From IMG/VR virus record IMGVR_UViG_3300012041_000021: a stretch of 64,000 nucleotides of DNA. One strand, 5' to 3'. Position 1 is the first letter of the stretch, and every line of letters starts with the position of its first letter. Below are positions 2,307 to 55,419 of this stretch, in pieces. A program made the translations under genes and the position numbers. Under the pieces are notes generated by a model. That model was not told the DNA's origin. It made no database searches and was given only the letters and a program-made list of their open reading frames with translations. The DNA comes from an uncultured virus (IMG/VR IMGVR_UViG_3300012041_000021) (taxonomy: Duplodnaviria; Heunggongvirae; Uroviricota; Caudoviricetes).

Positions 2307-5099
2307 TTAATTCTTGACATTTTTGTCAATACTGTTTCTAAAGCTATTCTCTTTTGAAGTTTGCATTTGCTCTCTCTTGATTTGAATATCTTCAGCTCTC
2401 ATTCTAAGCTCTTCGTCAATCTTCTTCATTTTAGCTTCTTCTGCTTTTGTCTTTGTCTCTAAAGCATTTTCTTTCATGGAAAGTTCTCTGTCTTTATAAT
2501 CATTGTCAAGAGCTTGTTGAGTAGCCTCATTGATTTGAGCATATCCGCTTTCTGCTGCTTGATTAGCAGTAGCTCTTCCAAGTGCGTTGATTCTTTCTGC
2601 TTCTATTCTAGCCTCTCTGTCTAAAGCTGATTCAGATGCTTTAAAGTCTCTTTCTGCTTGTGTCTCTTGAGCCTTAGCTTGTAATTGTTTGTCTACTAAT
2701 TGTTGTTCGTGGTCTCTTTGAGCTTGAGTTTCTTTCTGTGTATTTTCTCTTGATTGTCTAGCAACTGCAACTAATTCTGTGAACGTGTCTGCGGTATACA
2801 TTTCTGCATATCCTAATACGTCTGCTCCTAAAGTATTTGTTTTTAATAGAGTATCTTTGAAGGTCTCTATCTCTCTACGCTTCTTAGGGTCGTTAACAGG
2901 TGTTAAACTTAATCTTCTTAGAGGGAAATCCGCGTCGGTCAAGTTCATGTAATGTTTATCTCCATCACTTGCTGTGAATACGAAATCAACGTCTATGTAT
3001 TCTTTTTGGCAATATTGAGCTACAGCTAAATGTAATTCCATAGCTTTTGTTCTAGCTATCGACATGTCTGTAAAGATATCTGCTGTTGCATCATATTGTG
3101 CTTCTGCTCCTTGTTGTACTCCGGTTGCTGTTTCATAAGTGGTTGCTTCTCCTAATCTTTGTGGAGTAAAACCTACTTGCTCTAAAGCTTTTTGGAAGTA
3201 GTAGTTTGACAGTTGAATACGACTGTTTATTTGTTTGTCAAAAGATACATCCTGAACCATGAAAGTATTCATGTTCTGCGCTCCTTCTAAATTCTGTTTC
3301 TTAGTATCTAAAGGTACGAAGCCAATGTCTTTAGCTAAAGAGTGTAATTTCTCTAAAGATTCTTCAATCGTTCCGTGGTCTTTGTACTCTGAAGGTAAGA
3401 AGTTAATGTCAAATAAGAAGAACATTCCAATCTCTTTTTCAAGTAAATTGAAAATCTGATTTAAACAGATGTTATAACCAATTTGATATGGTCTTAATCT
3501 CTGCGCCATACCATTAGTTATGATACCTGCTACAGGAAGTTTAACGTCAAATATGTTACTGTCTCCTTTTATTTGGTATGGAAGTGGTTCGATGTCTAAG
3601 TATAAATCTTCTGATAAGAATGAATTACCTGCATTAATTTTAATTCCTTTCCATATTTCCGGCACGTAAAACTCATACATTGTGTTATCCTTTAACTCCT
3701 CTTTTCTTAAATCAGAAAGGGCTTTATTGGATACTTTTTTAATCTCATGAGCTTCTATGAATTCCGGTAACAGTTCATCTGTTACAATCTCTGTAGTTGA
3801 ATAACCTTGTTTAGTGGTGTAATTTAAGAACCACATCTTTTTCCAACTTCTCCAATATGCTTCAGTTACTTGCAATAAGTCCGTTCTTACAGTGATGTCG
3901 TCTCTTCTGTGTTGACTATATCCATAACCTAAGTAGTTATTGTTTTGGAAAGGGTGTAACCATGAAGGTACTCTTTGTTCTCCATCCGGCGTGTCTATAA
4001 CATTTTCCCCCATAGGGATGTCAAGAGCGTCCTGCATTTGAAGTCCTAAATCGTAATCATAGTAGTTGTGGAAAGGTAGTAATTGGTTTTGACCGAAAAA
4101 GTGACTGTTCCAAGAGCTAGGTTTTGCATTATCTCTTGCGTTCCCGGCTGCTTCGTATTTCTTTTGCAGGTCTTTAATTTGAATTGCAGTCATTAAGTGA
4201 CCGTACCTTTTAGTAATGTCTGAAACAGAAATGTAGTGAATCCTTCCTACATACTCCCCGTCTTGTGGGTTTTCTGCGTTTACGTCTTTTGAGAAGAATG
4301 TTTCCAAAGGAGACCATCTTTCCGGTTTGTAATAATCATATCCTACGTAGTAGTGTCTGAAGAATCTCCCGGTAAGTAAATAATCCTCCATTTCAGTTCT
4401 ATCTAGCTTATCTAGTTTGAATCTGTCTTGGTCTTTTTCTAAAGTGTGTTCAGCCCATTCAGCCGCTTTAGTTTTGAAGTTTTTGGACATTTCTTTTTCA
4501 ATGACTTCAGGAGGAAGGATTTTAGCCTTTTCCTGTTCGACCATTTCCATGTACTGTTGCTTCTCTTCTTCGGATTTAAATTCTTGTCCCGTTGGGTTTA
4601 TCCCCATTCTTAAAAGCTCTAGTTCAAGTTCTTTTTTGAATGTCTCTGTGGCGAATTCTTGCGTGCGTCTAGTTCTCTCTCTAAGATAATCATTCTCTGA
4701 AATTTCATCAGTAGTGTCTATCTTAAAGTTGTCCTTTTGTTTAAGCCACTCTCCTACGATTTTTCTAACTAAAATTCCAATGAAATCATAGTGCTTAACG
4801 AAGGTAGGTATCCCAACGCCATCTCCTAATTCTTTAATCCTGCCTAAAATACCGTCGTCTTGAATACCATAATCTGAATATACAAGTCTTCCTTCGACCA
4901 TTTTGTAATAGTCTCTAAAGTGTGAGTTTTCAGCTAATTGTGATATACCTATGGATTCCAAAGCATCCATATTTAGATGCTTAAATGAATCCTTTTTCTT
5001 GGTGTTATCCGATACGGTTTGTGCGGGTAGCGAATTAGTGTGTATATTTGTAGAGCCCAATCCGTCATAAAACGGGTGGTTTTCGATTCCTGTACTCAT
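2307..5099 (-). CDS. Portal protein, crAss-like
   Basis: 930 aa next to terminase; long C-terminal coiled coil; size and synteny typical of crAss-like portals. Confidence 0.8.
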   Translation of the reverse strand: MSTGIENHPFYDGLGSTNIHTNSLPAQTVSDNTKKKDSFKHLNMDALESIGISQLAENSHFRDYYKMVEGRLVYSDYGIQDDGILGRIKELGDGVGIPTFVKHYDFIGILVRKIVGEWLKQKDNFKIDTTDEISENDYLRERTRRTQEFATETFKKELELELLRMGINPTGQEFKSEEEKQQYMEMVEQEKAKILPPEVIEKEMSKNFKTKAAEWAEHTLEKDQDRFKLDKLDRTEMEDYLLTGRFFRHYYVGYDYYKPERWSPLETFFSKDVNAENPQDGEYVGRIHYISVSDITKRYGHLMTAIQIKDLQKKYEAAGNARDNAKPSSWNSHFFGQNQLLPFHNYYDYDLGLQMQDALDIPMGENVIDTPDGEQRVPSWLHPFQNNNYLGYGYSQHRRDDITVRTDLLQVTEAYWRSWKKMWFLNYTTKQGYSTTEIVTDELLPEFIEAHEIKKVSNKALSDLRKEELKDNTMYEFYVPEIWKGIKINAGNSFLSEDLYLDIEPLPYQIKGDSNIFDVKLPVAGIITNGMAQRLRPYQIGYNICLNQIFNLLEKEIGMFFLFDINFLPSEYKDHGTIEESLEKLHSLAKDIGFVPLDTKKQNLEGAQNMNTFMVQDVSFDKQINSRIQLSNYYFQKALEQVGFTPQRLGEATTYETATGVQQGAEAQYDATADIFTDMSIARTKAMELHLAVAQYCQKEYIDVDFVFTASDGDKHYMNLTDADFPLRRLSLTPVNDPKKRREIETFKDTLLKTNTLGADVLGYAEMYTADTFTELVAVARQSRENTQKETQAQRDHEQQLVDKQLQAKAQETQAERDFKASESALDREARIEAERINALGRATANQAAESGYAQINEATQQALDNDYKDRELSMKENALETKTKAEEAKMKKIDEELRMRAEDIQIKREQMQTSKENSFRNSIDKNVKN

Positions 5100-5152
5100 T
5101 GTCTATATTTAATTAATTTGCAAAATTATTACTTATTGCTGTAAATGCCAAA

Positions 5153-7834
5153 TTAGTTAAAAGGGTTGCTCTTTCCTCTAGTCCCATACATCCTTTCTGC
5201 AAGTGTTTTTTGTCTAGGTTTTTTAACGTTCTCTTCTTCTCTTTTTTTCTTTCTATTTAGTACCGGGAATAGGTAGTTCTGATGTGCGTAATACTCATAT
5301 CCTAAACATGACATGAACGATGTTATCCTATCGACGTTATTGTCAGGTCGGTAAGAAATCATCTCCTCTAAAAGTCCTATGTCATTAATCAAGTCTATTC
5401 CTAGTATTTGCTTATCTTCTCCATTCTCGTCCTTGACAGTGTGTTCTGCTGTGACGTAAGCTCTTACTAAGTTCTTCAAGAATTTGATATTTTCTACAGA
5501 AGGATTCCATCCGTACTTTCTTCTTCCAATACTCTTTTGCGCCATGTCTGATTTAAAGTCAAAACTCTCTACCATCCACATATCTGTTGCTCTCTTCCGG
5601 TCTAAATACTCTTTAAAACCTAAATCGGCGTTTTCTAAGAATACCATAGCGTTGTAGGCTTTCATAGCTAAGAATATCTGTCTGTAAAGTTTGTTGTGTG
5701 GGTCGGGTCTTGAAGCTATTGAGAACACTATTCTCCCACTCCATTCGTCCCCTCCCATGCTAACTTTATATATGTGGAAAGAACCTACTGAATCTGTTCC
5801 TGACTCATCTTGTTTGTAGTCGTCAAATCCGGCTAGATACAAATATGGTACAGGTGTTTCTGAAGGTAACTCTTCATACATTACGCCGGGAGCGTCAATA
5901 TACCCACCTCCATAAGGATAGTCTGCTAGAGGTTTACTGTGCGCTGTTTCATAGTGTATTTTACCTTGAGCGTCTTCAATTAATACTACCTTTTTTCCGT
6001 GGTCTCCTGTTTCTAAGAGGTAGTGTTTTCTATTCTGTGCTTCTACAGCAGGGAAGATGTTATCTTCTGAAGACATAAAACAATCTTCAGGGTCAATTGG
6101 ATACTGAACTCTTTTCTGTTGTTCTAAAAGTTTTCCTTTTGAGCCTCCCATTTTCTTGGCTGCGTCTATTCCGTCTTTTAATAGCTTCGTGTTATTCTCC
6201 CAATTAGTTGTGTGGATTGTTATTTTCCCTAACTCTTTATCTTTGATACCTAAAAAATCTGAAAAGTTTTCTTCCTTTTTTATAAATCCATCTTCATATG
6301 CCATTTGTCCCGGAAAGTAAGTAGCAAATCTTCTTCTTTTCCAAGTGATGTGTTCCGGGTCTATGTGATTTTCTAATAAGTCCCAATCCATAGGAAGTAA
6401 ATCGTAAGCTTCCGGGTTGGATAGTACGTCTACAGCATCTCTTGAAAGGTCACTTTCCCCGCCCGTACCTGCTAATACAGTTATACACTTAAACCCATAA
6501 GGGGTTTTAAATGAAGGTAGTGCTGCTAAGTAAGGTTTTAAGAAAGCATATTTACCAATCTCATCATAGATAGAAACTGATGGTGCTAGACCTGCTGTTT
6601 TCTGTGTTTTTGATTTCGCTCCGGCTTCTAAGTTCTGTACAATAAGTGTTGAGAAAACTCTTGGAGTTTGAGAATCTTCTCTAATTCCGAAAGTTGTGTT
6701 ACCGTTTTCCCACTCCTGTTGCATAATATCTAACCTAAGAGGTTCTTCAATGAAACTCATGGAGGTCTTAACCTTACTTGTTAAAGCGTTAATATCCGAA
6801 GAACTTCCTCCAATGATAGTACCAAAAGAGTTAAATTTAGTAATTGTTCTCCAATGCGCTAAAGATGCTAAGATTACTGATTTTCCGAAACGTCTAGTTC
6901 CGTACATTAAGATTGCTTTCGCGTAGTAGTTCTCATTTTCAGGGTGAATACACTTTTTCAAGTTTTCTGCGAAGAACCATTCATTGTCCCGTAAGTCCGG
7001 TTGGATGTTCGGCTCTGAACCGTCTTTTTGTGGGATAGGTGTTCTGAAGAAGTTTAAGTGGAAATATAGCCAAGGGTGGATGAAGTATCCGGCTATAGTC
7101 ACTCCATGTTGTATCTTATTATACTCTTCTGCCCAAAATTGAAGGACTACCGGGTCTTGGTCGAAGTAGTGTTTTTTATTGTTCCATTTAGGGATATCTT
7201 TAGGATTCATGTTTATGAACATCTCCTTTGAAGTCCTTAAACTCCACTCAACACTTATATTATTTGTTTTCTCCCGGACATCTTCTCTAACTAAAGAAAG
7301 TAATTCTCTAGTTATGAAAGGTGCTTTTTTATCGTTATAGAAAACAACTTTAGATTTATCAAATTCTTCTTCGTTTTCATTGAAGTTGAATTCGGATATT
7401 TCTTTCTGTAGTTTTGTTGTTTGCCGGAAAAGTAAGTTGTGAAAAGCAATCTCTTCTGAGCGTAGGTTTTGGTAAGGTATAAGCTCAATGTCTACTTCTT
7501 CATTGTAAGAATCTGACCTGTCTATGTGGATTTTAATAATCTCAATCCCTTCTCTTACAAAGTCTTTATAAGCCTTTAAATGTGTGTCGGCAGCAGCTTC
7601 CTTGACAAAGTACTTTAAAGTGTCTGAAACCATAGCTAAAAGGTTATTCTGAACTATAGACTCATTCTTTCTGAACTCTAATTCATTGTTCAGTTTTTTA
7701 TAGGACGCATCTTCATCTGCTAAATCTCCCAAGACGGGTTTTGTCAGTGTCCAATCATTCTTTATAATATAATCCTTGTACTTACGTAACTGTGGTATTT
7801 TTTTCTTTGTGTACTCGTTGATAAAATCTGACAT
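5153..7834 (-). CDS. terL: Terminase large subunit
   Basis: Walker A-like GTRRFGKS, Walker B SIYDEIG, coupling motif LAGTGG, RNase H-like nuclease motif AGFDDY, C-terminal NVDRI. Confidence 0.9.
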   Translation of the reverse strand: MSDFINEYTKKKIPQLRKYKDYIIKNDWTLTKPVLGDLADEDASYKKLNNELEFRKNESIVQNNLLAMVSDTLKYFVKEAAADTHLKAYKDFVREGIEIIKIHIDRSDSYNEEVDIELIPYQNLRSEEIAFHNLLFRQTTKLQKEISEFNFNENEEEFDKSKVVFYNDKKAPFITRELLSLVREDVREKTNNISVEWSLRTSKEMFINMNPKDIPKWNNKKHYFDQDPVVLQFWAEEYNKIQHGVTIAGYFIHPWLYFHLNFFRTPIPQKDGSEPNIQPDLRDNEWFFAENLKKCIHPENENYYAKAILMYGTRRFGKSVILASLAHWRTITKFNSFGTIIGGSSSDINALTSKVKTSMSFIEEPLRLDIMQQEWENGNTTFGIREDSQTPRVFSTLIVQNLEAGAKSKTQKTAGLAPSVSIYDEIGKYAFLKPYLAALPSFKTPYGFKCITVLAGTGGESDLSRDAVDVLSNPEAYDLLPMDWDLLENHIDPEHITWKRRRFATYFPGQMAYEDGFIKKEENFSDFLGIKDKELGKITIHTTNWENNTKLLKDGIDAAKKMGGSKGKLLEQQKRVQYPIDPEDCFMSSEDNIFPAVEAQNRKHYLLETGDHGKKVVLIEDAQGKIHYETAHSKPLADYPYGGGYIDAPGVMYEELPSETPVPYLYLAGFDDYKQDESGTDSVGSFHIYKVSMGGDEWSGRIVFSIASRPDPHNKLYRQIFLAMKAYNAMVFLENADLGFKEYLDRKRATDMWMVESFDFKSDMAQKSIGRRKYGWNPSVENIKFLKNLVRAYVTAEHTVKDENGEDKQILGIDLINDIGLLEEMISYRPDNNVDRITSFMSCLGYEYYAHQNYLFPVLNRKKKREEENVKKPRQKTLAERMYGTRGKSNPFN

Positions 7835-9948: not shown

Positions 9949-10185
9949 CTAAACATTAACGTTTGGTTGAAATCTGAATAGGGAGAAAAAGAAAGATTCA
10001 ATCATTCTCTTAATTGTGCTCATAGATAAATTGTCATCCATTTCGTAGAGTCTGTAGGCATCAAAAGTAATCGTGTCTATAAAATCTTTATTTTGGCTGA
10101 TGTAATCTTCTGTTACTATCCTTGCGGAGATGTTTCCCCACAATTGTTCGTAAAAATCTTCGTAAGGTAGATGTTGTTTTTCCAT
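9949..10185 (-). CDS. Hypothetical protein, probably leaderless mRNA
   Basis: Minus strand reads TATCTTTG-CGGC-ATG, putting the -7 box 4 nt from the start codon. Confidence 0.6.
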   Translation of the reverse strand: MEKQHLPYEDFYEQLWGNISARIVTEDYISQNKDFIDTITFDAYRLYEMDDNLSMSTIKRMIESFFFSLFRFQPNVNV

Positions 10186-10244
10186 GCCGCAAAGATATTA
10201 AATATAATTTAATTACACAAATTAGTTAAACACGCTTTAATTAA

Positions 10245-10301: not shown

Positions 10302-10436
10302 ATGAAAACAAAATTATTACAATTAAGAATTGAAGAAGTCCTTTTAAAAGATTTAGAAAAGTTGGCAGAATCAAATGCGTTATCTGTATCTGCTCAGGTT
10401 AGGATGCTAATTAAACATGCACTTAAAAATGGCTAA
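10302..10436 (+). CDS. Ribbon-helix-helix (CopG/Arc-like) repressor, 44 aa
   Basis: Below ORF-track cutoff; MKTKLLQLRIEEVLLKDLEKLAESNALSVSAQVRMLIKHALKNG has the beta-strand/helix/helix RHH pattern. Confidence 0.75.
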   Translation: MKTKLLQLRIEEVLLKDLEKLAESNALSVSAQVRMLIKHALKNG

Positions 10437-11034
10437 GAATACTACACCGTATAGCCCAACTACTCAAGGAGTAGGTTATACAGGAGAGGGTAGACATGTT
10501 TGTTACATTAATGGTAAAGTTACTAAAATGTTTGACGTTTGGTCTAAAATATTTCAAAGAAGTTATAGTAAGCACTACCACAAACGATATCCTACATATG
10601 TTGGCTGCTCTGTAGATGAAAAATGGCACTGTTTTCAAGACTTTGGAGATTGGTTTGAGGAAAATTATAAGCCTGAATATATGCAAAATTGGGAGTTAGA
10701 TAAAGATATTATAGTTAACAGTAATAAAATTTATTCTACCAACACATGTGCCTTTGTTCCAAAAGAGGTCAATTACTTATTTAAAAGTACTAAAAGTTTT
10801 AGGGGTGACTGTCCTATAGGGGTGCGTAAACAAGGTGATAAATTTGTAGCCACTATTAGAATAAATAATAAGCAAACGTATTTAGGTAGTTTTTCTACTA
10901 TGGAAGCGGCATTCCTCTCTTTTAAAACAGCAAAAGAGAAGTATATTAAAGAAGTTGCAGATAAGTATAAAGACACACTAGACCCACAAGTTTACAAGTC
11001 AATGTATAGTTATGAAATTAAAATAACAGATTAA
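10429..11034 (+). CDS. HNH-like homing endonuclease with C-terminal AP2 domain
   Basis: YPTYVGCSV..W..FQDF..W, LDKDII..NKIYS..TCAFVP..VN; AP2-like PIGV...YLGSFST.EAA; start at ATG 10429 overlaps the RHH stop. Confidence 0.75.
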   Translation: MAKNTTPYSPTTQGVGYTGEGRHVCYINGKVTKMFDVWSKIFQRSYSKHYHKRYPTYVGCSVDEKWHCFQDFGDWFEENYKPEYMQNWELDKDIIVNSNKIYSTNTCAFVPKEVNYLFKSTKSFRGDCPIGVRKQGDKFVATIRINNKQTYLGSFSTMEAAFLSFKTAKEKYIKEVADKYKDTLDPQVYKSMYSYEIKITD

Positions 11035-11056
11035 TTTAAAATATTATTTAATTTAG

Positions 11057-11610
11057 TTGCACATGTCAAAACTTATTTGTACTTTTGCACTTTAAATAGA
11101 AACATCAATAGTTTATTAGTTGTGAAGAGCTGAAAACTATTATACAATATTAATACTTACGACACCCACTTTAACATTCAAGCTTAACCCTCTCTTCACT
11201 TAAGGGGTTTTGCCATGAATGTTTTAGTGGGTTTCGACGTTTTATGATGTGGGGCTACGAGGAATCGTTCACATTGCGGGAGTTTAATTACTCCTTAAGC
11301 TAAAAGGAAGCGAGTGCATACTTAGTATGTTGAACTCTCCTGAGAGCTGCGCTATGCAGCAAAATTAAAAATATAAAGTTATCCCAAGGAGCAGGAGCTT
11401 TAGCTCCACTAAAAATAAAATCCTAACTGTGAGGCTGAAAGCCGAAGTCGCGAAGCGGTTACTACTACGAAGCACACTGAAGAAAACAGTTAAAGAATGT
11501 AATTCTAAAACGGACTACGAAGCGAAGCGTAGTAGAACGGTTTAGCTCCGTCCGAGTAGGACATTCTTTGAACACAAAACAGTTGTTCTTTTTTAGCTGT
11601 TTTAAAGTAG
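11057..11610 (+). ncRNA. Structured non-coding locus A (promoter + kissing-loop hairpins + GNA mini-hairpins)
   Basis: No ORF of 60 aa or more; promoter 33/36 identical to that at 46611; many perfect hairpins; see findings. Confidence 0.6.
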
Positions 11611-11615
11611 AATTA

Positions 11616-11647
11616 TTTGGTAGTCTCGTTTTTATTTTGTATATTTG
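11616..11647 (+). promoter_or_regulatory. Bacteroidota sigma70-type promoter
   Basis: TTTGGTAGTCTCG...TATATTTG; same upstream string at 16818. Confidence 0.75.
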
Positions 11648-11673
11648 CAGTCTAAAATACTTAACAGTTAATT

Positions 11674-13635
11674 ATGTACAATTACTATTTGATTACTTTT
11701 CGCGGAAACATAAAAACAGAAGTGGATAAATTACCGTTGACTTTACTTTCTAAATATGTTGAATCAACAGATAAAACCGACGTGATGGTTTTTGTGAATA
11801 ATGGAAAGGAGTTTGAGATTATAAAATCTATTTATTCTCCTTTCGGGCGATTTTTAAAAACAGAATATTTTCCAATTGTAAAACAGAAAGAAAATGGAAG
11901 AAATAGAAAATAAAGATTTTATAAAATGCCAAAATTTTCTATTAGAAAAAGGGTTTTATGTAGAGGGTGCTACATATATAGGATACGGTAAATACGAATT
12001 TAAAGAGCATTGGTGCGCATACGATAAATTAGGTATACATACTATACATAAAATAACAGCTTGGGTAGACGATGGTGAGGTAGAGTACTTTACAAAAGTA
12101 ATAGGTATGTGCGCTAATGACTAAAAAAACGACTGAAGAAAAAATAGTAATAAAACAGTTTAAAGACGGTTCTAGCAACTATTGGGTAGACGGAAAACAT
12201 TACTACTTAGATAAAAACAATGAAGTACACTTTGCCGCCGGAGGAATAGACACTGAAGAATTACGCGAAGCTCTTCGTCAATTTATAAAACGAAATAAAA
12301 AGGTCTACAAACCACGCGAAGTAGTAGCTGAAAATAGAGTGTATGAAGCATTATTTTCTTTCGGTAAACACAATGGTCGGACGACTTATGAAGTCTTCTT
12401 AGACGAGCCAAAATACTGCTTGTGGGTGTGGGAGAACTATACGTTTAAAAGCGGAGATGAAAAATTAAAGATGGAATTAAAAGAACTCTTAAGAAAATAG
12501 TATGAAACTAAAAATAGTTGAAGCAGACTACGGTTTGTTTTATGTAATGGTAAAGCTCAATTGGTACAGTAAATGGAAAGTTATTGATTATAATAATCAT
12601 CAATTTAAAACATACAAATCTGTTAACGATTATTGGAAAGACTACGATACTACTTTTAACGATACTTATCAAAAAGCTGATGAATTATTAAAAAAATACA
12701 AGAACAACTATGGAATTTAAATATTGGAGAACATCAAATCACGAACCAAAAACTGTAAGTATAGATACACTAGAAGAATTGTTAGAATTTTGCGAAGCTA
12801 GATGTACAGAGGTTATTATTATATCTAATAGTGATGGTACAGTTAGTTTAGAAATCTACGACAATTATAGAGAGTAATTATGGACGACGAACAAATGTTA
12901 AAACTTTACATGGAAGGGTTTAATGACGAACTGAATGGAACAGCTCAAAGTAATGTGAAACATTTAATGTTTAAGCAGTATAGAATTGGAGCTGACCATG
13001 CGTTGTTAGGCGACGATAACAGAAACCTAGATTACTTGTCTAATGAAGAAATATTAAATTTAATACGTTAATGAAAAACGAGTAATTATGGGGATGTTTA
13101 TAAAATTTAACTGTATGGGCTGCGATGAAAGCCCTTGCACTTGTGAACCAATCGTACAAGAGAGCTTACCAAGTTATAAATCAAAATGTGAACCCTCTGT
13201 TCAGGAATTAGATTGTGTTTTGCAAAACGGGTATACATATCTAATAAACATAGTAACTGAAGATGGTGTAGCCTATAAAAGAGCTACACACGATTATAGT
13301 GAGGAAAGTATTTTAGAAGGAGATTATAAAATAGTGGGGCATAGAGTAAAATGAAAAACGAGATATTATATAAGGTAGGGATTTACATTTCAGATTTCTT
13401 TTTCCCGCCCTCGGCAGTATATCAAAAAGAAAGGTATCTAAAAAGATATGGTAGACCTGATGAATGTCTGTTTTTTTATGGTAAAGGGACATGGACTGAT
13501 GTATGCGTGTTAAGTGGAAACAATTTCTATAAAAAACTAGCAGAGTTTGGTGTCAGTCCTTTTTGTGTTCAGATGAGAAAAGATATAAAAGAAAAAGGGA
13601 GTTTTTGCCCAAGTGATTATGGCTACAAAATATAA
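11674..13635 (+). other. Cluster of ~8 small hypothetical CDSs; 12117-12500 has a C-terminal FGKH-x-G...YCLW (DUF3820/ExoX C-terminal-like) motif
   Basis: Abutting or overlapping plus-strand ORFs from the track. Confidence 0.65.
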
Positions 13636-18935: not shown

Positions 18936-18979
18936 ATGTTGCACAGTAAAAAATAAAGTTGTATATTTGCAGAAGAAAT

Positions 18980-19075
18980 AAAGATAGGAGTTGCTCCAAA
19001 ATAACATACTCTACTACATTGGTATAGGCGCACGAAGTAGGTAAAATCTACGAGTATGTTTCTCTTATCTTTTTT
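18980..19075 (+). ncRNA. Candidate small structured RNA or leader after promoter at 18962
   Basis: AAAGATAGGAG/CTCTTATCTTT and AACATACTC/GAGTATGTT stems, followed by a T-run. Confidence 0.45.
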
Positions 19076-19096
19076 AACAATTAAAACCAAAACAAT

Positions 19097-26382: not shown

Positions 26383-27049
26383 ATTTATACTAAGTCTAAA
26401 TAAACTTAAGTCTTTGTCCGGTCTGTTTATCTTTATTTAGATTAAGTCTATATAGTATAATTAATACCTTTTTTATTTGTTTTTGTCATTTTGTCATTTT
26501 GCGCCTTATTTAGATTCATTATAAATTTCTGTTTTGATTAGGATTATTCATTTTAATTTATTAATATACGCGCCCGCGCCCGCCCGCGCAGGCACACACG
26601 CGAGCCACTATTTAGATTCATTATAAATTAACACTCAATATATTTTTATAACAAAATAATCTGTTTTTGGCTTGGTCATTCAAAATATTGTCCCTGTTCA
26701 ACGTTCTCAAACTTTTAATACTTCCATACATTTGCACCTGTTTACATTACTTAAAACACCTTTAAAATCGTTTTTAAGGCTATTTAATAACCTTTTACCT
26801 TTATAATAAATGAAAAGCGGGCGCGCGTATATTATACGAAATTCTTTTTAAATAAAAAAATTTATTTTCACTTTCTATTAAAAAACTTTTATGCACCTTT
26901 ACACTGTCCAAAAGACATGATAAAAAGGAGTTCTTATTTAGACTGAAAATAAATAACAAAAAAAGTTAGGTTATATCAAATAAATTATTACCTTTGAAAT
27001 GTCCAAAAGACATAAAGAAAAAGAGGTCTTATTTAGAATGAAAATAAAT
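26383..27049. promoter_or_regulatory. Six 19-bp ATTTAGA-N5-T(C/A)TAAAT-type imperfect palindromes (Fur-box-like)
   Basis: Copies at 26383, 26435, 26508, 26610, 26936, 27031; those at 26508 and 26610 are identical (ATTTAGATTCATTATAAAT). Confidence 0.65.
26562..26834. repeat. GC-rich inverted repeat pair
   Basis: TAATATACGCGCCCGC (26562-26577) versus GCGGGCGCGCGTATATTA (26817-26834). Confidence 0.75.
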
Positions 27050-27108
27050 AACGAAAGTTGTTTGGTAGTTTAAAAAAAGTTTCTATCTTTGTAGTGTCCA
27101 AAGGGACA
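26894..27108 (+). promoter_or_regulatory. Three tandem early promoter units, 95-bp period
   Basis: -7 boxes CACCTTTA (26894, degenerate), TACCTTTG (26989), TATCTTTG (27084), each followed by TGTCCAAA(A/GG)GACA at 26905, 27000, 27095. Confidence 0.8.
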
Positions 27109-28314
27109 AAAGTTCTTTAAGTATTGGGTTATTAGGTCGTTAGGGGTTCATTAATCCTGTCGTAACGCAACAAAACAAGTTTTTTAACTGTTGAGATGTC
27201 AACATTAATCAAGGCGTTTTACGCAAAATCAAGAGCGTGCCTATATTCCTTTAAATCGGTTCATTGACATTATGATAGTATATAAAAATTCGGTTTTGCT
27301 AGTCGTATTGATTATTTTTATTAATCTTTCCATTAGTAGAGGCTATATTTTACCTTAAGTCTATTTTATAACAGTTTAACACGTTATAAAGTCCTGACAG
27401 AATAAGCGAAAAACGAAAGTACTTTTTTTAAGAGTATTGCTAAATTGATATATATTATTTGTTGGGCGGGATATAAAAACACGTAGTTCACCGCTAACTA
27501 GATGATGATTGTAAAATAGTTGGGATAACTGTATAATTTCGTCAAGGGTGCAAAATAGGTCTGCGGGTCTCGAAAAATTGCACAGTGTTACACTTCACTA
27601 AACCCAAAATAAGGGCAAAAAGTAAATATTACAGAATCGTATGGGGTTATTAATATACCTTACTTGCAAAGCGACAAAAGTAAAAAATTAAATACTCCCC
27701 TTAAAAGATTAGTCTTTGTTAAGTTCATTACTTATAAGGGGAACGAGTAGCCAATAACGGCGCAAAATAAAAACAGTAAAATTATGAAAAAGTTTAAAGT
27801 TACTTATAATCACGACGTATATAAACCGTCTAATTATGAAATGTTTAAAGCACAGCAAGCTTGGTCAATAACTATTGAAGCAGAGGACTTAAACACAGCC
27901 AAAGGTAAATTAAAGTTAATGTATATCATTAACCCTGCTTACTTTAATATAGTAGAGGTAAACTAAAAACAGTAAAATTATGGCAAAGTTAGTTAAATTA
28001 ACAGACAATCAGAGAAACAAACTAGTAGTAGCAATAGTTAAAAACTCCGTATCTTATCAATGTAAGCATATCGACTATAAAATCGTTGGGAGTAGTGTGC
28101 ATATTTTTGACGCTAGAGACAACGAAACGTTTTCAGCCACAGAGTTATGTAGTCAATTAAGCGGGTTTAACCAATACTTTACTATTGATGAAGGTAAAAT
28201 AGTACTTAGAATCTTTTAATATGCTAGTAATCAGTCTTTTAGCAGTTACCATTATCGTTTTAATGGTAGCTGTTTTCTGTTTAGCTTATAAGATAGCAGG
28301 AAAGTTTTTATAAT

Positions 28315-45637: not shown

Positions 45638-46600
45638 ATGAGCATAAGCGCAGTAATAAAATATGAAGACAATAGAGTATCAATACATACTTCAAAAGCG
45701 AAGAGTGTAAGCACTACTTTAGAAAAAGGTTTTTATACATCTTTACCCGACGGTAAAGGCGGTTTAACTATTAAAGAAGAGTTTCTTCCTGAACTACACA
45801 CACCTTATAATACAGAAGAAAATGAAACCGTTATTGAAACAGTTAAAAGCTTTTTCAAGAAAGGGATTAAAGAACGAGTAAACGCTCTAGGAGTTATTCA
45901 TAAATTAGGAATACTTTCTTTTGGTAAACAAGGTACAGGGAAGACAGCTAGAATGAATTATATAGCTTCAAAAATGATTGACGAGTGTGGAGCAATTGCT
46001 TTTTTATGTGGTACAGGAGAAGCTTTGCAAGGTGCTATCTCTTTAGCTAAAGCTATTAGAGAGATTCAAGATACTCCTATCATTTTTATAGCTGACGAGT
46101 TTGAAAAGTTTGCCGGAGATTATGAATCTGCAATGAAAAGTCTTTTAGATGGTGTAGATTCAATTGAAAATACACTGTTTTTAGGGGCTACCAATTACAT
46201 TGATTTAATTCCCGATTCATTGAAAGACCGTCCTTCTCGTTTTAAAATTGTGCAAGAGTTGAAAGGGATGGAAGATAAAAAACAAATTGAAGGTATTCTT
46301 TTGGACTTGTGTTCTAAAGTTACACCTCCTCTAATGACTTTGGAAGAGATTCAAGAAGAGATTAAAGGTCAGGATAACTATACTTTAGACGAGCTTAAAC
46401 ACATCGTACTTAGCAGAGTTACAGACAGTTACGTCAAAGTTAAAAAAACTACAACTACTCCTATAGGTTTTGGAGCGAAGAAAGAGATTTCAGAAGAAGA
46501 AGATAAAAAACTTATGAACAGAGCTATTCAGAAAATACATAATGATTGGTGGGCGGATGCACCTTCACCTCAACTGTTAGACATTAATTCTAACATTTAA
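45638..46600 (+). CDS. AAA+ ATPase
   Basis: GKQGTGKT, FIADEFE, LLDG, ATNY, DRPSRF. Confidence 0.9.
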   Translation: MSISAVIKYEDNRVSIHTSKAKSVSTTLEKGFYTSLPDGKGGLTIKEEFLPELHTPYNTEENETVIETVKSFFKKGIKERVNALGVIHKLGILSFGKQGTGKTARMNYIASKMIDECGAIAFLCGTGEALQGAISLAKAIREIQDTPIIFIADEFEKFAGDYESAMKSLLDGVDSIENTLFLGATNYIDLIPDSLKDRPSRFKIVQELKGMEDKKQIEGILLDLCSKVTPPLMTLEEIQEEIKGQDNYTLDELKHIVLSRVTDSYVKVKKTTTTPIGFGAKKEISEEEDKKLMNRAIQKIHNDWWADAPSPQLLDINSNI

Positions 46601-46610
46601 TTTAATTAGT

Positions 46611-47160
46611 TTGCACATGTCAAAACTTAATTGTATCTTTGCACTTATAAAATGGAGAAATTCTGTTTTACAACATAGATATAACGTTTAGCCTGAGAAA
46701 CTAATCATATAAAAATACTTAAGGTATCCCCTTTTAGATTTTTGGACAAATTCTCAGGCTGTCCGATTTTCTATTAGGGGTTTTTTATTTTCAGTCCATT
46801 CCACTATAGGTTTTCAACCGCGTACCTATTTAAAACTAAAAGGCGGATTAACAAGGAATGTTGAAAAATAAAAAGATAAACTAATTAAACACGTTTGATT
46901 CACACTAATCTCGCAATGTCTTAACGCTTGACAACGAGTAACTGCATTCCCTAGAGGGTAATCGAATTAAAATGACTGAAAACGAAGCTCTGTTAAGAAA
47001 TTAATAACTTCACCTACTAAGATTAGGCGCAGGAGCAGAAATGGTTTAATGGTTAAGTAAGTTTCCACTCTTACTACAAACTCCGGTTTTATTCTTTTGA
47101 GAGGATAATGCAGGAGTAATAGCGAAGCTATGTCCGGTAGCGAGAAAAAAAACAAAAATA
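46611..47160 (+). ncRNA. Structured non-coding locus B (homologue of locus A)
   Basis: Same promoter, kissing-loop architecture and GCGAAGC hairpin; no plus-strand ORF of 60 aa or more. Confidence 0.6.
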
Positions 47161-47248
47161 AATTATGAAATAATAAAGAAAATTGAAATTTTCCTTGCAC
47201 AATCCAATTATTATAATTACATTTGCCAAAGAAAAATAAAACAAGAAC

Positions 47249-47785
47249 ATGACAGAAGAACAAAAAGAATTATTTAAGAAAGACCCGCTAATCAAATTAA
47301 TCTTAGAACAAAAAGAACCTTTGGGGCACATTACTCTAGTGGGCGGAGCTGTAATTGATATCTTGGAAGGACGTATTCCAAAGGATTATGATTTAACTAA
47401 CATCGACGGTAGAGCTAAAAAGTATTTAAATTTAGAATACTCTCACGATACAAAGACAGCTACTACTTATAAGACATATATCTTTGATAAAAGAGTACAG
47501 TTAAATATTCAAGTTTTGAAAACAAGTATAGACAATTTTGACTTTTCTATTTCTGCGGCAATTTTAACTATCAATCATAATAAGGAAATGTCCCTAGCAA
47601 TAGATGAGAACGCTTTTAAGCTAAAAACTCTGATTCCTCAGAGTGCGAGTTGGGAAGATAGAAACTACGCTTTAAACTCCTTAAAAAGGATTCCACATTG
47701 GAAGAAGAAGGGGTATACTATAAAAGATGAAACTTATTTAAGTTTGTTGAATGTAATTGGAAAAAAAGATTCTAAACACAGTTAA
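47249..47785 (+). CDS. Minimal tRNA nucleotidyltransferase / poly(A) polymerase-like head domain
   Basis: LVGGAVIDILEGRIPKDYD (GG..RD/KD.D-like signature), FDFSI. Confidence 0.7.
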   Translation: MTEEQKELFKKDPLIKLILEQKEPLGHITLVGGAVIDILEGRIPKDYDLTNIDGRAKKYLNLEYSHDTKTATTYKTYIFDKRVQLNIQVLKTSIDNFDFSISAAILTINHNKEMSLAIDENAFKLKTLIPQSASWEDRNYALNSLKRIPHWKKKGYTIKDETYLSLLNVIGKKDSKHS

Positions 47786-50241: not shown

Positions 50242-50928
50242 GTGGAAAAAGAAGATAGAAGGTGTTTTGTATACAGGCATAGAAGATTAGACACCAATGA
50301 AATTTTCTATATAGGAAAAGGCACAACAAGTAAAAAATTTTTAAATTCTGAATCCGATAAGAAAAAATTCGTAAGAGCGTTTTCTAAAAGAAATAGAAAT
50401 CAATGGTGGGTTAATATAAGTAAATTAGGTTATGAAATAGAGATATTAAAGACTAATCTTACTGAAGACGAATCTAATGATTTAGAAGAGTTGTTAATAA
50501 CTACTTATGGTAGAAAAGATTGTTGTGGAGGCACTTTAGTTAACTTAACTGATGGAGGGGAAGGAGCTATTGGTCGTATTATGAGTGAAGAGCAAAAACA
50601 AGAAATAGGTAAGCGCAACTCAGGGGTGAATAATAAGTGGTTTAAAATAGCCTCTGAATTACATCCTATGTACGGAAGGATAGGAGAATTAAATCCTTAT
50701 TTTGGCAAAACTCACTCGGAAGAAGTAAGAGAAAGTATGAAGAAACCTCATCTAAGTGCTAGAGGTAAAGGTCATTTTAGGTCTAAAGTGGTTTTACATT
50801 TATTAACAGGGATTTTTTACGATTGTGTAAGAGATGCAGCAGAAGCATTTGGCTTAAATTATAGCACGTTAAAGAATAATTTAAACGGAACAAATAGAGT
50901 TAATAAAACAGATTTTATAATTATTTAA
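50242..50928 (+). CDS. GIY-YIG homing endonuclease with NUMOD3-like repeats
   Basis: FVYRH...FYIGKG, LVNLTDGGEG, HPMYGR / NPYFGKTHSEE. Confidence 0.85.
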   Translation: MEKEDRRCFVYRHRRLDTNEIFYIGKGTTSKKFLNSESDKKKFVRAFSKRNRNQWWVNISKLGYEIEILKTNLTEDESNDLEELLITTYGRKDCCGGTLVNLTDGGEGAIGRIMSEEQKQEIGKRNSGVNNKWFKIASELHPMYGRIGELNPYFGKTHSEEVRESMKKPHLSARGKGHFRSKVVLHLLTGIFYDCVRDAAEAFGLNYSTLKNNLNGTNRVNKTDFIII

Positions 50929-53479: not shown

Positions 53480-53569
53480 GAAGAGGAAGTTCAATTGGAG
53501 AAACAGTAGCGTTCCGAAAGAGGTCAGCTCTTGCGCTAAAGGTTGGGGGTTCGAGTCCCCCTCTCTTCG
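53480..53569 (+). tRNA. tRNA-like RNA with 17-nt hairpin insertion in the anticodon loop (identity unassignable)
   Basis: Acceptor GAAGAGG/TCTCTTC, D-arm GTTCAATTGGAGAAAC, T-arm GGGGG-TTCGAGT-CCCCC, discriminator G, no encoded CCA. Confidence 0.75.
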
Positions 53570-55017: not shown

Positions 55018-55215
55018 AAGATTATGTTGGGCATTATTTAGTTTAATGTTGATTACGTTAGGTACAGGTCTCTATTTAGGGGATGAGTTTTTAGAAGGTA
55101 TTTCTACAGGTTGTGCGGTAGCTCTTTACTTCACACTCCCCGAAAAGAAAACAGAAAAATAAGTTAACAAACGGAAAAACTTTTTAATTTAATTGTGTAA
55201 TTCAAAACATTGTTA

Positions 55216-55388
55216 TACATTTGCATCACAATAACAGAAGTCCTGTAGACTAGCAGGAGACAAGAGAATAGCCTTTACTAAGGGTTCGACTTGGTAAACA
55301 AACACAGGCAGAATGCCTACTCTCTCGCAATTTAAATTAGAGAGAATCAAATTATTAGCCCTTAGCCGAAACGTTAGGGGCTTTTTTT
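55216..55388 (+). promoter_or_regulatory. Promoter and structured leader with terminator/antiterminator upstream of nrdJ
   Basis: TACATTTG 55216; several hairpins; terminator AGCCCTTAGC-CGAAAC-GTTAGGGGCT plus T-run at 55357-55388; CTAAGGGTT (55278) complementary to its 5' arm. Confidence 0.6.
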
Positions 55389-55419
55389 GCCCCGTAAATT
55401 AAAAATCAATTATAAATAA

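Follow-up and report, generated by a model that had tools for sequence, protein, structure and literature searches.

The window analysed in this study is a 64-kb stretch of DNA from a large Bacteroidota phage. The portal and large terminase genes lie on the - strand (2307-7834). 3' of these, a long + strand block encodes RecA/UvsX, PhoH, GroEL, a 3'-5' exonuclease, a class-II-like ribonucleotide reductase and thymidylate synthase. The closest cultured relatives were the Cellulophaga phages phi4:1 and phi17:2 (genus Lightbulbvirus, approximately 145 kb), and the large terminase (TerL) of the window was 34.5% identical to theirs over 96%. A closer uncultured relative was the IMG/VR genome G001 (146,648 nt, with terminal repeats), whose RecA was 80% identical. 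The window sequence was contained in 14 public DNA runs, and their habitats were freshwater sediment or groundwater; none of the runs listed was an RNA run. Contigs from four public runs were identical to the window, with a depth of approximately 2-5, and the long hairpin described below was partly or wholly uncovered in 4/4. Because these contigs are identical to the window, they supplied no variants for covariation.

Locus A is a gene-free stretch (11035-11673) at the head of the replication genes. The + strand block opens with a 44-aa ribbon-helix-helix ORF (10302-10436, +; weak Pfam RHH_5 match, E 9e-4). An HNH homing endonuclease gene (10417-11034, +) lies directly 5' of locus A. The predicted features of locus A and of the related locus B are as follows.

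11057..11087, + strand: P1, promoter of Bacteroidota sigma-A type (TTG-N20-TAnnTTTG), "TTGCAC" class
11107..11141, + strand: leader hairpin 1, whose loop carries GUGAAGAG (11122-11129); from the MFE fold and an inverted repeat
11152..11159, + strand: linker AAUACUUA, directly 5' of the long hairpin; from alignments, also at 46714-46721 in locus B and as AGACUUA in phi4:1
11160..11236, + strand: long bulged terminator-like hairpin (-34.1 kcal/mol), apical loop with CUCUUCAC (11192-11199)
11257..11446, + strand: conserved structured segment, homologous to phi4:1 NC_021788.1 91808-92005 (L153:7809-8006)
11447..11612, + strand: rest of the hairpin field, with CGC-GAA-GCG and GC-GAA-GC mini-hairpins, duplicated ACTACGAAGC, the AAAGAATGT/ACATTCTTT stem and a last AAAACAG/CUGUUUU hairpin
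11617..11647, + strand: P2, second promoter ("TTGGTAGT" class), from the motif and repeat family D5; heads the ORF at 11674 with a leader of 26 nt
46611..46793, + strand: locus B, with promoter 46611-46641, AGCCUGAGAA at 46690-46699 and terminator hairpin 46728-46780 carrying UUCUCAGGCU at 46751-46760

A first-pass annotation, made from the letters of the window, had described approximately 400 nt without a gene at locus A. No credible ORF was found there with the standard code or with reassigned stops, which agrees with that description. The region 11093-11428 contained no + strand ORF of at least 20 aa. The check for a hidden small ORF or recoding gave the same picture, and no long frame opened with TAG read as Q or TGA as W (table 4). 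In tblastx of locus A against relatives, the matches were at promoter level only, with no coding remnant.

The fold of locus A as a + strand RNA was -158.6 kcal/mol (z -5.9), and 0/100 shuffles were as good. The - strand RNA gave -135.5 kcal/mol (z -4.4), so that the + strand was 23 kcal/mol better. Among the 12 gene-free stretches of at least 250 nt in the window, only locus A was structured (z -6.2); the others scored -2.6 or higher on either strand. The fold signal was concentrated in the first 150 nt (z -7.6), and the hairpin field alone reached z -2.3 (1/100 shuffles as good). The GC content of the locus was 0.41 against a background of approximately 0.30. The small hairpins GCTGC/GCAGC, GGAGC/GCTCC, GGC-TGAAA-GCC, CGC-GAA-GCG and GC-GAA-GC and the enclosing AAAGAATGT/ACATTCTTT stem were all recovered where the first-pass annotation had placed them. 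It had also proposed a structured, promoter-driven non-coding element without a named family. A cmscan search of 10900-11800 and 46500-47350 against 4227 Rfam families at E<=10 gave only chance-level miRNA/snoRNA matches at both loci, in keeping with this proposal. With INPHARED blastn, locus A found only a 69-nt AT-rich match in Riemerella phages and locus B found nothing. The search for sequence homologues of both loci in G001 gave nothing better than E 0.07. Overall, locus A is a real structured non-coding unit, and it is probably transcribed.

At Rfam gathering thresholds, the sole match across the window was a tRNA at 53480. This tRNA gene (53480-53569, +) has an insertion of approximately 21 nt in the anticodon-loop region. 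It scored 37.5 bits with the Rfam tRNA model and 47.8 bits with our own model, and was missed by ARAGORN.

The sigma-A consensus of Bacteroidota is a -33 TTG and a -7 TAnnTTTG. P1 reads TTG-N20-TACTTTTG (11057-11087), and both motifs stand at the usual spacing and point at the downstream features. The promoter was said to have a second copy in the window, and 11057-11092 was indeed identical to 46611-46646 at 33/36 positions (3 mismatches). The 36-nt promoter had only these two matches in the window with up to 3 mismatches, and two matches were reached in 0/100 shuffles. The TTG-N20-TAnnTTTG motif occurred 22 times on the + strand and 8 times on the - strand, with a Markov mean of 6.6. At 9 of the 14 + strand sites checked, it lay 19-39 nt 5' of an ORF. 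A metagenome scan with the 25-nt core of P1 gave 4 matches, all of them host-like promoters, 5' of genes on four Bacteroidales-like contigs with a GC content of approximately 50%. The core was also found in crAss001-type Bacteroides phages. A scan of IMG/VR with the promoter pattern gave 0 matches. Because the core precedes genes on these contigs and occurs in crAss001-type phages, P1 is predicted to be an ordinary near-consensus Bacteroidota sigma-A promoter and not a phage-specific signal.

The + strand promoters fell into two sub-classes by their -33 region, which may mark different timing classes. The TTGCAC sub-class comprised the sites at 11057, 18939, 46611, 47195 and 50947, and the TTGGTAGT sub-class those at 11617, 16819, 27062, 32702 and 63395. 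A second homing endonuclease gene (50242-50928) likewise has a TTGCAC-class promoter directly 3' of it.

The leaders of loci A and B have the same order. A small hairpin is followed by an AU-rich linker, whose last letters are AAUACUUA, and then by a long hairpin (apical loop of 11-12 nt) and a U-run. The long bulged hairpin described earlier at locus A was present (11160-11236). The loop complement reported with it also stood: GTGAAGAG at 11122-11129 complements CTCTTCAC at 11192-11199. The paired letters differ between the loci, with GUGAAGAG/CUCUUCAC (8 nt) at A and AGCCUGAGAA/UUCUCAGGCU (10 nt) at B. In dinucleotide shuffles of the upstream segment, the complement length was reached 369 times in 20000 for A and 11 times in 20000 for B. 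The terminator hairpin of locus B (-21.4 kcal/mol) is followed by TTTTTTATTTT (U6AU4). The tail 3' of the long hairpin of locus A is ACGTTTTATG, with a weak U-run at 11240-11243 (4 U, 3 nt past the stem), so that termination at A is doubtful. A generic terminator scan, which considers loops of at most 8 nt, found none at the loci. The first-pass annotation had offered an attenuator as one branch of its interpretation. This branch fits, since the complementary loop belongs to a hairpin with a U-run; the run is weak at A and strong in the other copies (B, G001, phi4:1).

The two loci had been called a duplicated module. This holds for the promoter, for the AATACTTA linker and for the way in which the leader (the first ~150 nt) is built; the remaining ~400 nt of A and B did not align (score 28, shuffles 26). 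Locus B is a putative second, independently diverged copy of the promoter and leader only. The next ORF of at least 40 aa lies 480 nt after the promoter at A and 607 nt after it at B, with a second promoter in between. From the leader to the next gene there are approximately 370-450 nt plus this second promoter, unlike the G001 copy described below. In IMG/VR, the TTTGCACTT..AATACTTA pattern had at least 120 matches, and the 12 best-folding among the matches listed were without promoter context.

Several other regions of the window had leader-like or uncharacterised features. The first gene 3' of locus B (47249-47785, +) contains LVGGAVIDILEGRIPKDYDL, which by eye resembles a nucleotidyltransferase (CCA-adding / poly(A) polymerase) head motif; it had no Pfam match and belongs to PHROG 4400, of unknown function. 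For the AAA ATPase adjoining locus B, no relatives were found. A protease-like ORF (19097) is preceded by a 127-nt leader (18970-19096, +). The outer stem of this leader closes just 5' of a T6 run, which gives it a terminator-type look without the kissing design. The class-II-like ribonucleotide reductase gene is separated from a promoter by a 196-nt leader (55193-55419, +), at whose end stands a strong terminator (10-bp stem, loop CGAAAC, T7). This leader matched nothing in Rfam and may be regulatory.

A third copy of the leader was found in G001 (G001:28534-28629), with a complement of 9 nt, UGGGAGGUU/AACCUCCCA, that was reached in 10/5000 shuffles. Its order is promoter, hairpin loop UGGGAGGUU, terminator loop AACCUCCCA, U-run and the ATG of a primase-like gene. 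This copy sits just past the strand switch of that genome, directly 5' of its gene. The primase-like protein found only itself as a relative. A fourth, looser version occurs in Cellulophaga phage phi4:1 (L153:7631-7748). In this version, the transcript would open with CGCUGAG, followed by UUCUUCUUA, and these nucleotides complement the 31-nt interior of the terminator hairpin. A pairing of 7 nt and a second helix together give a duplex of -24.7 kcal/mol. In phi4:1, a similar promoter and unit follow a 23-tRNA array and precede helicase/RecA genes, and they lie between the strand switch and these genes, as locus A does. The loop-loop complementarity thus recurs with different letters in A, B, G001 and, more loosely, phi4:1, and we take it to be real, as had been proposed.

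To set these pairs against a wider background, 378 U-run hairpins from the window, G001 and 100 kb of phi4:1 were scored by loop-to-upstream duplex energy. B ranked 1st (-16.7 kcal/mol), G001 ranked 2nd (-15.9 kcal/mol) and A was tied 5th (-11.8 kcal/mol). Three upstream values were -14 kcal/mol or lower, and the downstream control had 0. The third of these, a hairpin antisense to terL, is presumably chance. Complementarity alone is common: a loose descriptor with an 8-nt loop/upstream complement gave 53 rows on the + strand of the window. A crude count of complements of at least 8 nt in 113 hairpins, upstream versus downstream, showed no enrichment; in G001+ it gave 2 rows upstream (both from one hairpin) versus 3 downstream. 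Because the cruder counts showed no enrichment, the case rests on a few strong, promoter-proximal, GC-containing examples and not on statistics over many. The MFE-based promoter-anchored search missed B and G001, and we regard it as unreliable.

The nested alternatives were compared for each copy. In A and G001, the terminator hairpin was more stable than the leader-loop helix, by 30 and 9 kcal/mol, respectively. The two forms were isoenergetic in B (-31.9 kcal/mol for the hairpin versus -30.9), and in phi4:1 the leader-loop form won (-29.3 versus -22.5 kcal/mol). In A and G001, the nucleotides of the terminator hairpin are not those of the loop contact; in B and phi4:1 the two forms compete. 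Because the terminator hairpin is the more stable form in A and G001, the contact there would be possible only as a tertiary kiss. The evidence from these energy models suggests a graded design: the contact may be purely a tertiary kiss in A and G001, and in B and phi4:1 an antiterminator that excludes the terminator hairpin.

Two further regions of phi4:1 drew attention. At L153:6989-7300 (NC_021788.1 ~90,990-91,300), a second promoter of the same type is followed by T-arm-like GAGAGTTCGATTCTCTC and ACAGGTTCGATTCCTGT. Weak matches to tmRNA models (E 0.017 and 0.05) make it a candidate for an unannotated tRNA-like or tmRNA-like RNA. At L153:3030-3196, a promoter, a leader of approximately 125 nt and a strong terminator lie directly 5' of the 23-tRNA array; by eye, an upstream GGGAGG could pair with the 5' arm of the terminator.

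The segment 3' of the leader of locus A (11257-11446) has a counterpart in phi4:1, directly 3' of the leader of that phage. The local alignment scored 49 against 25.5 +/- 3.4 for shuffles (0/200 as high); with a larger phi4:1 target the shuffle maximum was 51 in 100 trials, i.e., at least 1/100 matched the real score. In the window the core reads GGAGC-UUUA-GCUCC-ACUAAA...GUGAGGC-UGAAA-GCC, and its phi4:1 version is AGAGC-UUA-GCUCU-ACUAAA...GUGAGGC-CGUAA-GGC; the core motifs are unique in both genomes. RNAalifold on the two sequences gave three shared hairpins, with 6/17 pairs changed on both sides. The phi4:1 counterpart folded no better than shuffles (z -0.2). Indels in the alignment of the window with phi4:1 are not multiples of three. 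Between phi17:2 and phi4:1, two single-base indels fall inside a small ORF annotated in this region, which argues that the region is non-coding. The homology of the segment has been kept although TerL of these phages is only 34% identical. With model R2, built from A plus phi4:1, no further copies were found in 362 kb of related sequence. The exact core-motif pattern found only phi4:1 itself in IMG/VR, and its 3 matches in genome contigs (Vibrio, an alphaproteobacterial MAG and a Marinobacter MAG) were taken for chance. For the rest of the field (11447-11612), which holds the GAA mini-hairpins, no homologue was found, and it did not align to phi4:1.

In this study, we believe that a kissing-loop/terminator leader close to the promoter controls how much transcription enters a conserved structured RNA, and we put the probability of this reading at about 0.55. 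The promoter motif, the folds, the complementarity that covaries in four loci (a basis of 4 sequences) and the downstream homology to phi4:1 are observed. From these we infer that the locus is transcribed, that transcripts end at the hairpin and which way the kiss acts. Host RNA polymerase would start at P1 on the + strand and make a non-coding transcript. Its first ~150 nt would form the leader: a small hairpin at the 5' end, joined through an AU-rich linker to a long hairpin of terminator type, with complementary loops at the tips of the two. The loop-loop (pseudoknot) contact would set how often the polymerase stops or reads through at the hairpin. Read-through would lead into a structured RNA segment of approximately 190 to 370 nt and on to the replication/recombination genes, which would also be served by P2.

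A different use of the same parts is conceivable and, in our opinion, unlikely: at A as at B, a trans-acting sRNA of approximately 145 nt would run from P1 to the long hairpin, its fold compacted or a seed hidden by the kiss, and the hairpin field would be a separate matter. The promoter, two hairpins and U-run do form a self-contained unit, most clearly at B, and the next genes have promoters of their own. However, complements of the loops within the 64-kb window were none beyond chance (longest matches 11-14 nt), and in G001 the same design abuts a start codon, which is leader behaviour. Moreover, the segment of A that is conserved with phi4:1 lacks a separate + strand promoter motif. The gating-leader reading can also be extended; the extension is distinctly doubtful. 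The leader would be a switch that senses the speed of the polymerase, a protein of phage or host, or a small ligand. Its copy-specific kissing code would gate a so far undescribed, conserved structured RNA at the head of a Lightbulbvirus-like replication module, and that RNA would help to start replication (primer/R-loop) or organise the switch from early to middle expression.

Origins of the R-loop or primer-RNA type (ColE1, T4 oriF/oriG) combine a promoter with an AT-rich unwinding element or a mapped RNA-DNA transition, and with iterons or an antisense regulator. The first-pass annotation had considered such an origin at locus A. Transcription from P1 would yield a primer or R-loop, or the GNA mini-hairpins would act as single-strand initiation signals, beside the replication genes. 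The position is suitable: locus A is approximately 900 nt away from the strand switch and precedes recombination/replication genes, the G001 leader copy precedes a primase-like gene, and the hairpins would form in DNA too. Other results spoke against it. Locus A has no iterons or tandem repeats. The DNA 3' of the promoter is GC-richer (0.41 versus approximately 0.30) and is not an AT-rich unwinding element. The sign of the GC skew changes at the gene-strand switch (approximately 10,000-10,200) and not at locus A. The hairpin field folded as single-stranded DNA was unremarkable on either strand (z -2.3 and -1.9), whereas as RNA the locus has the 23 kcal/mol advantage of the + strand noted above. 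The second copy of the leader (B), 35 kb away, is without the hairpin field. No convincing antisense promoter was found at locus A, where the one off-spacing motif (11387-11360, -) is within chance. An origin at locus A is therefore very improbable.

The longest gene-free stretch of the window lies elsewhere (26404-27783, 1380 nt); its GC is low (0.31) and its GC skew dips locally. It contains a 95-nt tandem repeat (2.1 copies, 26905-27102) with a TTGGTAGT-type promoter motif (27062-27091) inside and a TTTTGTCA mini-repeat. Judged by these features, it may be a better candidate than locus A for an origin or a regulatory region.

A tRNA or tRNA-array remnant at locus A was tried and rejected: ARAGORN gave 0 genes, and a model built from 18 phi4:1 tRNAs and run with filters off reached at most 5.2 bits in 10900-11800, against 47.8 bits for the window's own tRNA as control. 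The least probable reading takes the hairpin field for a decayed remnant or spacer (e.g., a lost tRNA array or gene) at an insertion hotspot of homing endonucleases, with incidental folds; the abutting HNH gene, the 23 tRNA genes at the syntenic place in phi4:1 and the lack of the field in the relatives L001 and G001 suit it, and the tRNA model scores, the lack of coding remnants, the GC enrichment, the z of -5.9 and the homology with compensatory changes across very distant phages count against it.

The gating leader and its downstream segment can be compared with several known systems. Phage T4 encodes the small stable RNAs species 1 and 2 (rnaC/rnaD) beside its tRNA cluster. The phi4:1 homologue of the structured segment likewise lies just past 23 tRNA genes; the window, unlike T4, has no tRNA array at the site. 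In ColE1 RNA I/II, pT181 attenuation, P4 CI RNA and P1 c4, loop-loop pairing governs termination or primer formation near a promoter. The leader at locus A shares with these controls the copy-specific loop letters and the closeness to the promoter. It differs in that they use two RNAs, or a processed RNA and its target, whereas the partners here lie approximately 60-70 nt apart in one transcript.

The closest parallel is the guanidine-IV (mepA motif) riboswitch. There, the loop of a 5' hairpin kisses the loop of the terminator hairpin and decides between termination and read-through, and the kissing loop with the terminator loop favours read-through (PMC11611296). At the loci studied here, too, the loop of a 5' hairpin is complementary to the loop of a predicted terminator hairpin (A 8 nt, B 10 nt, G001 9 nt). 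The differences are that no Rfam riboswitch matched A or B (E<=10), that the context is a phage and the hairpins are much longer, and that in A and G001 the kiss leaves the terminator stem unoverlapped. Each copy has its own loop letters, so that no conserved ligand pocket can be seen, unlike in guanidine-IV. Our best reading is that the leader of locus A would work like the guanidine-IV riboswitch without being a member of that class.

Terminator-based leaders are well known; a leader with a copy-specific pairing code at the hairpin tips has no Rfam entry, and full-text searches within a limited library of papers found no description of such a leader in Bacteroidota phages. The window contributes two copies in an unusual setting, before long non-coding stretches and not before genes; at locus A an HNH gene lies upstream. 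The structured segment is conserved with the cultured marine phage phi4:1, whose host is cultured too, so that a finding from an uncultured phage becomes open to direct bench experiment. Set beside these systems, locus A is, as predicted from its sequence, a new form of leader control through a terminator, coupled with an RNA segment that is conserved.
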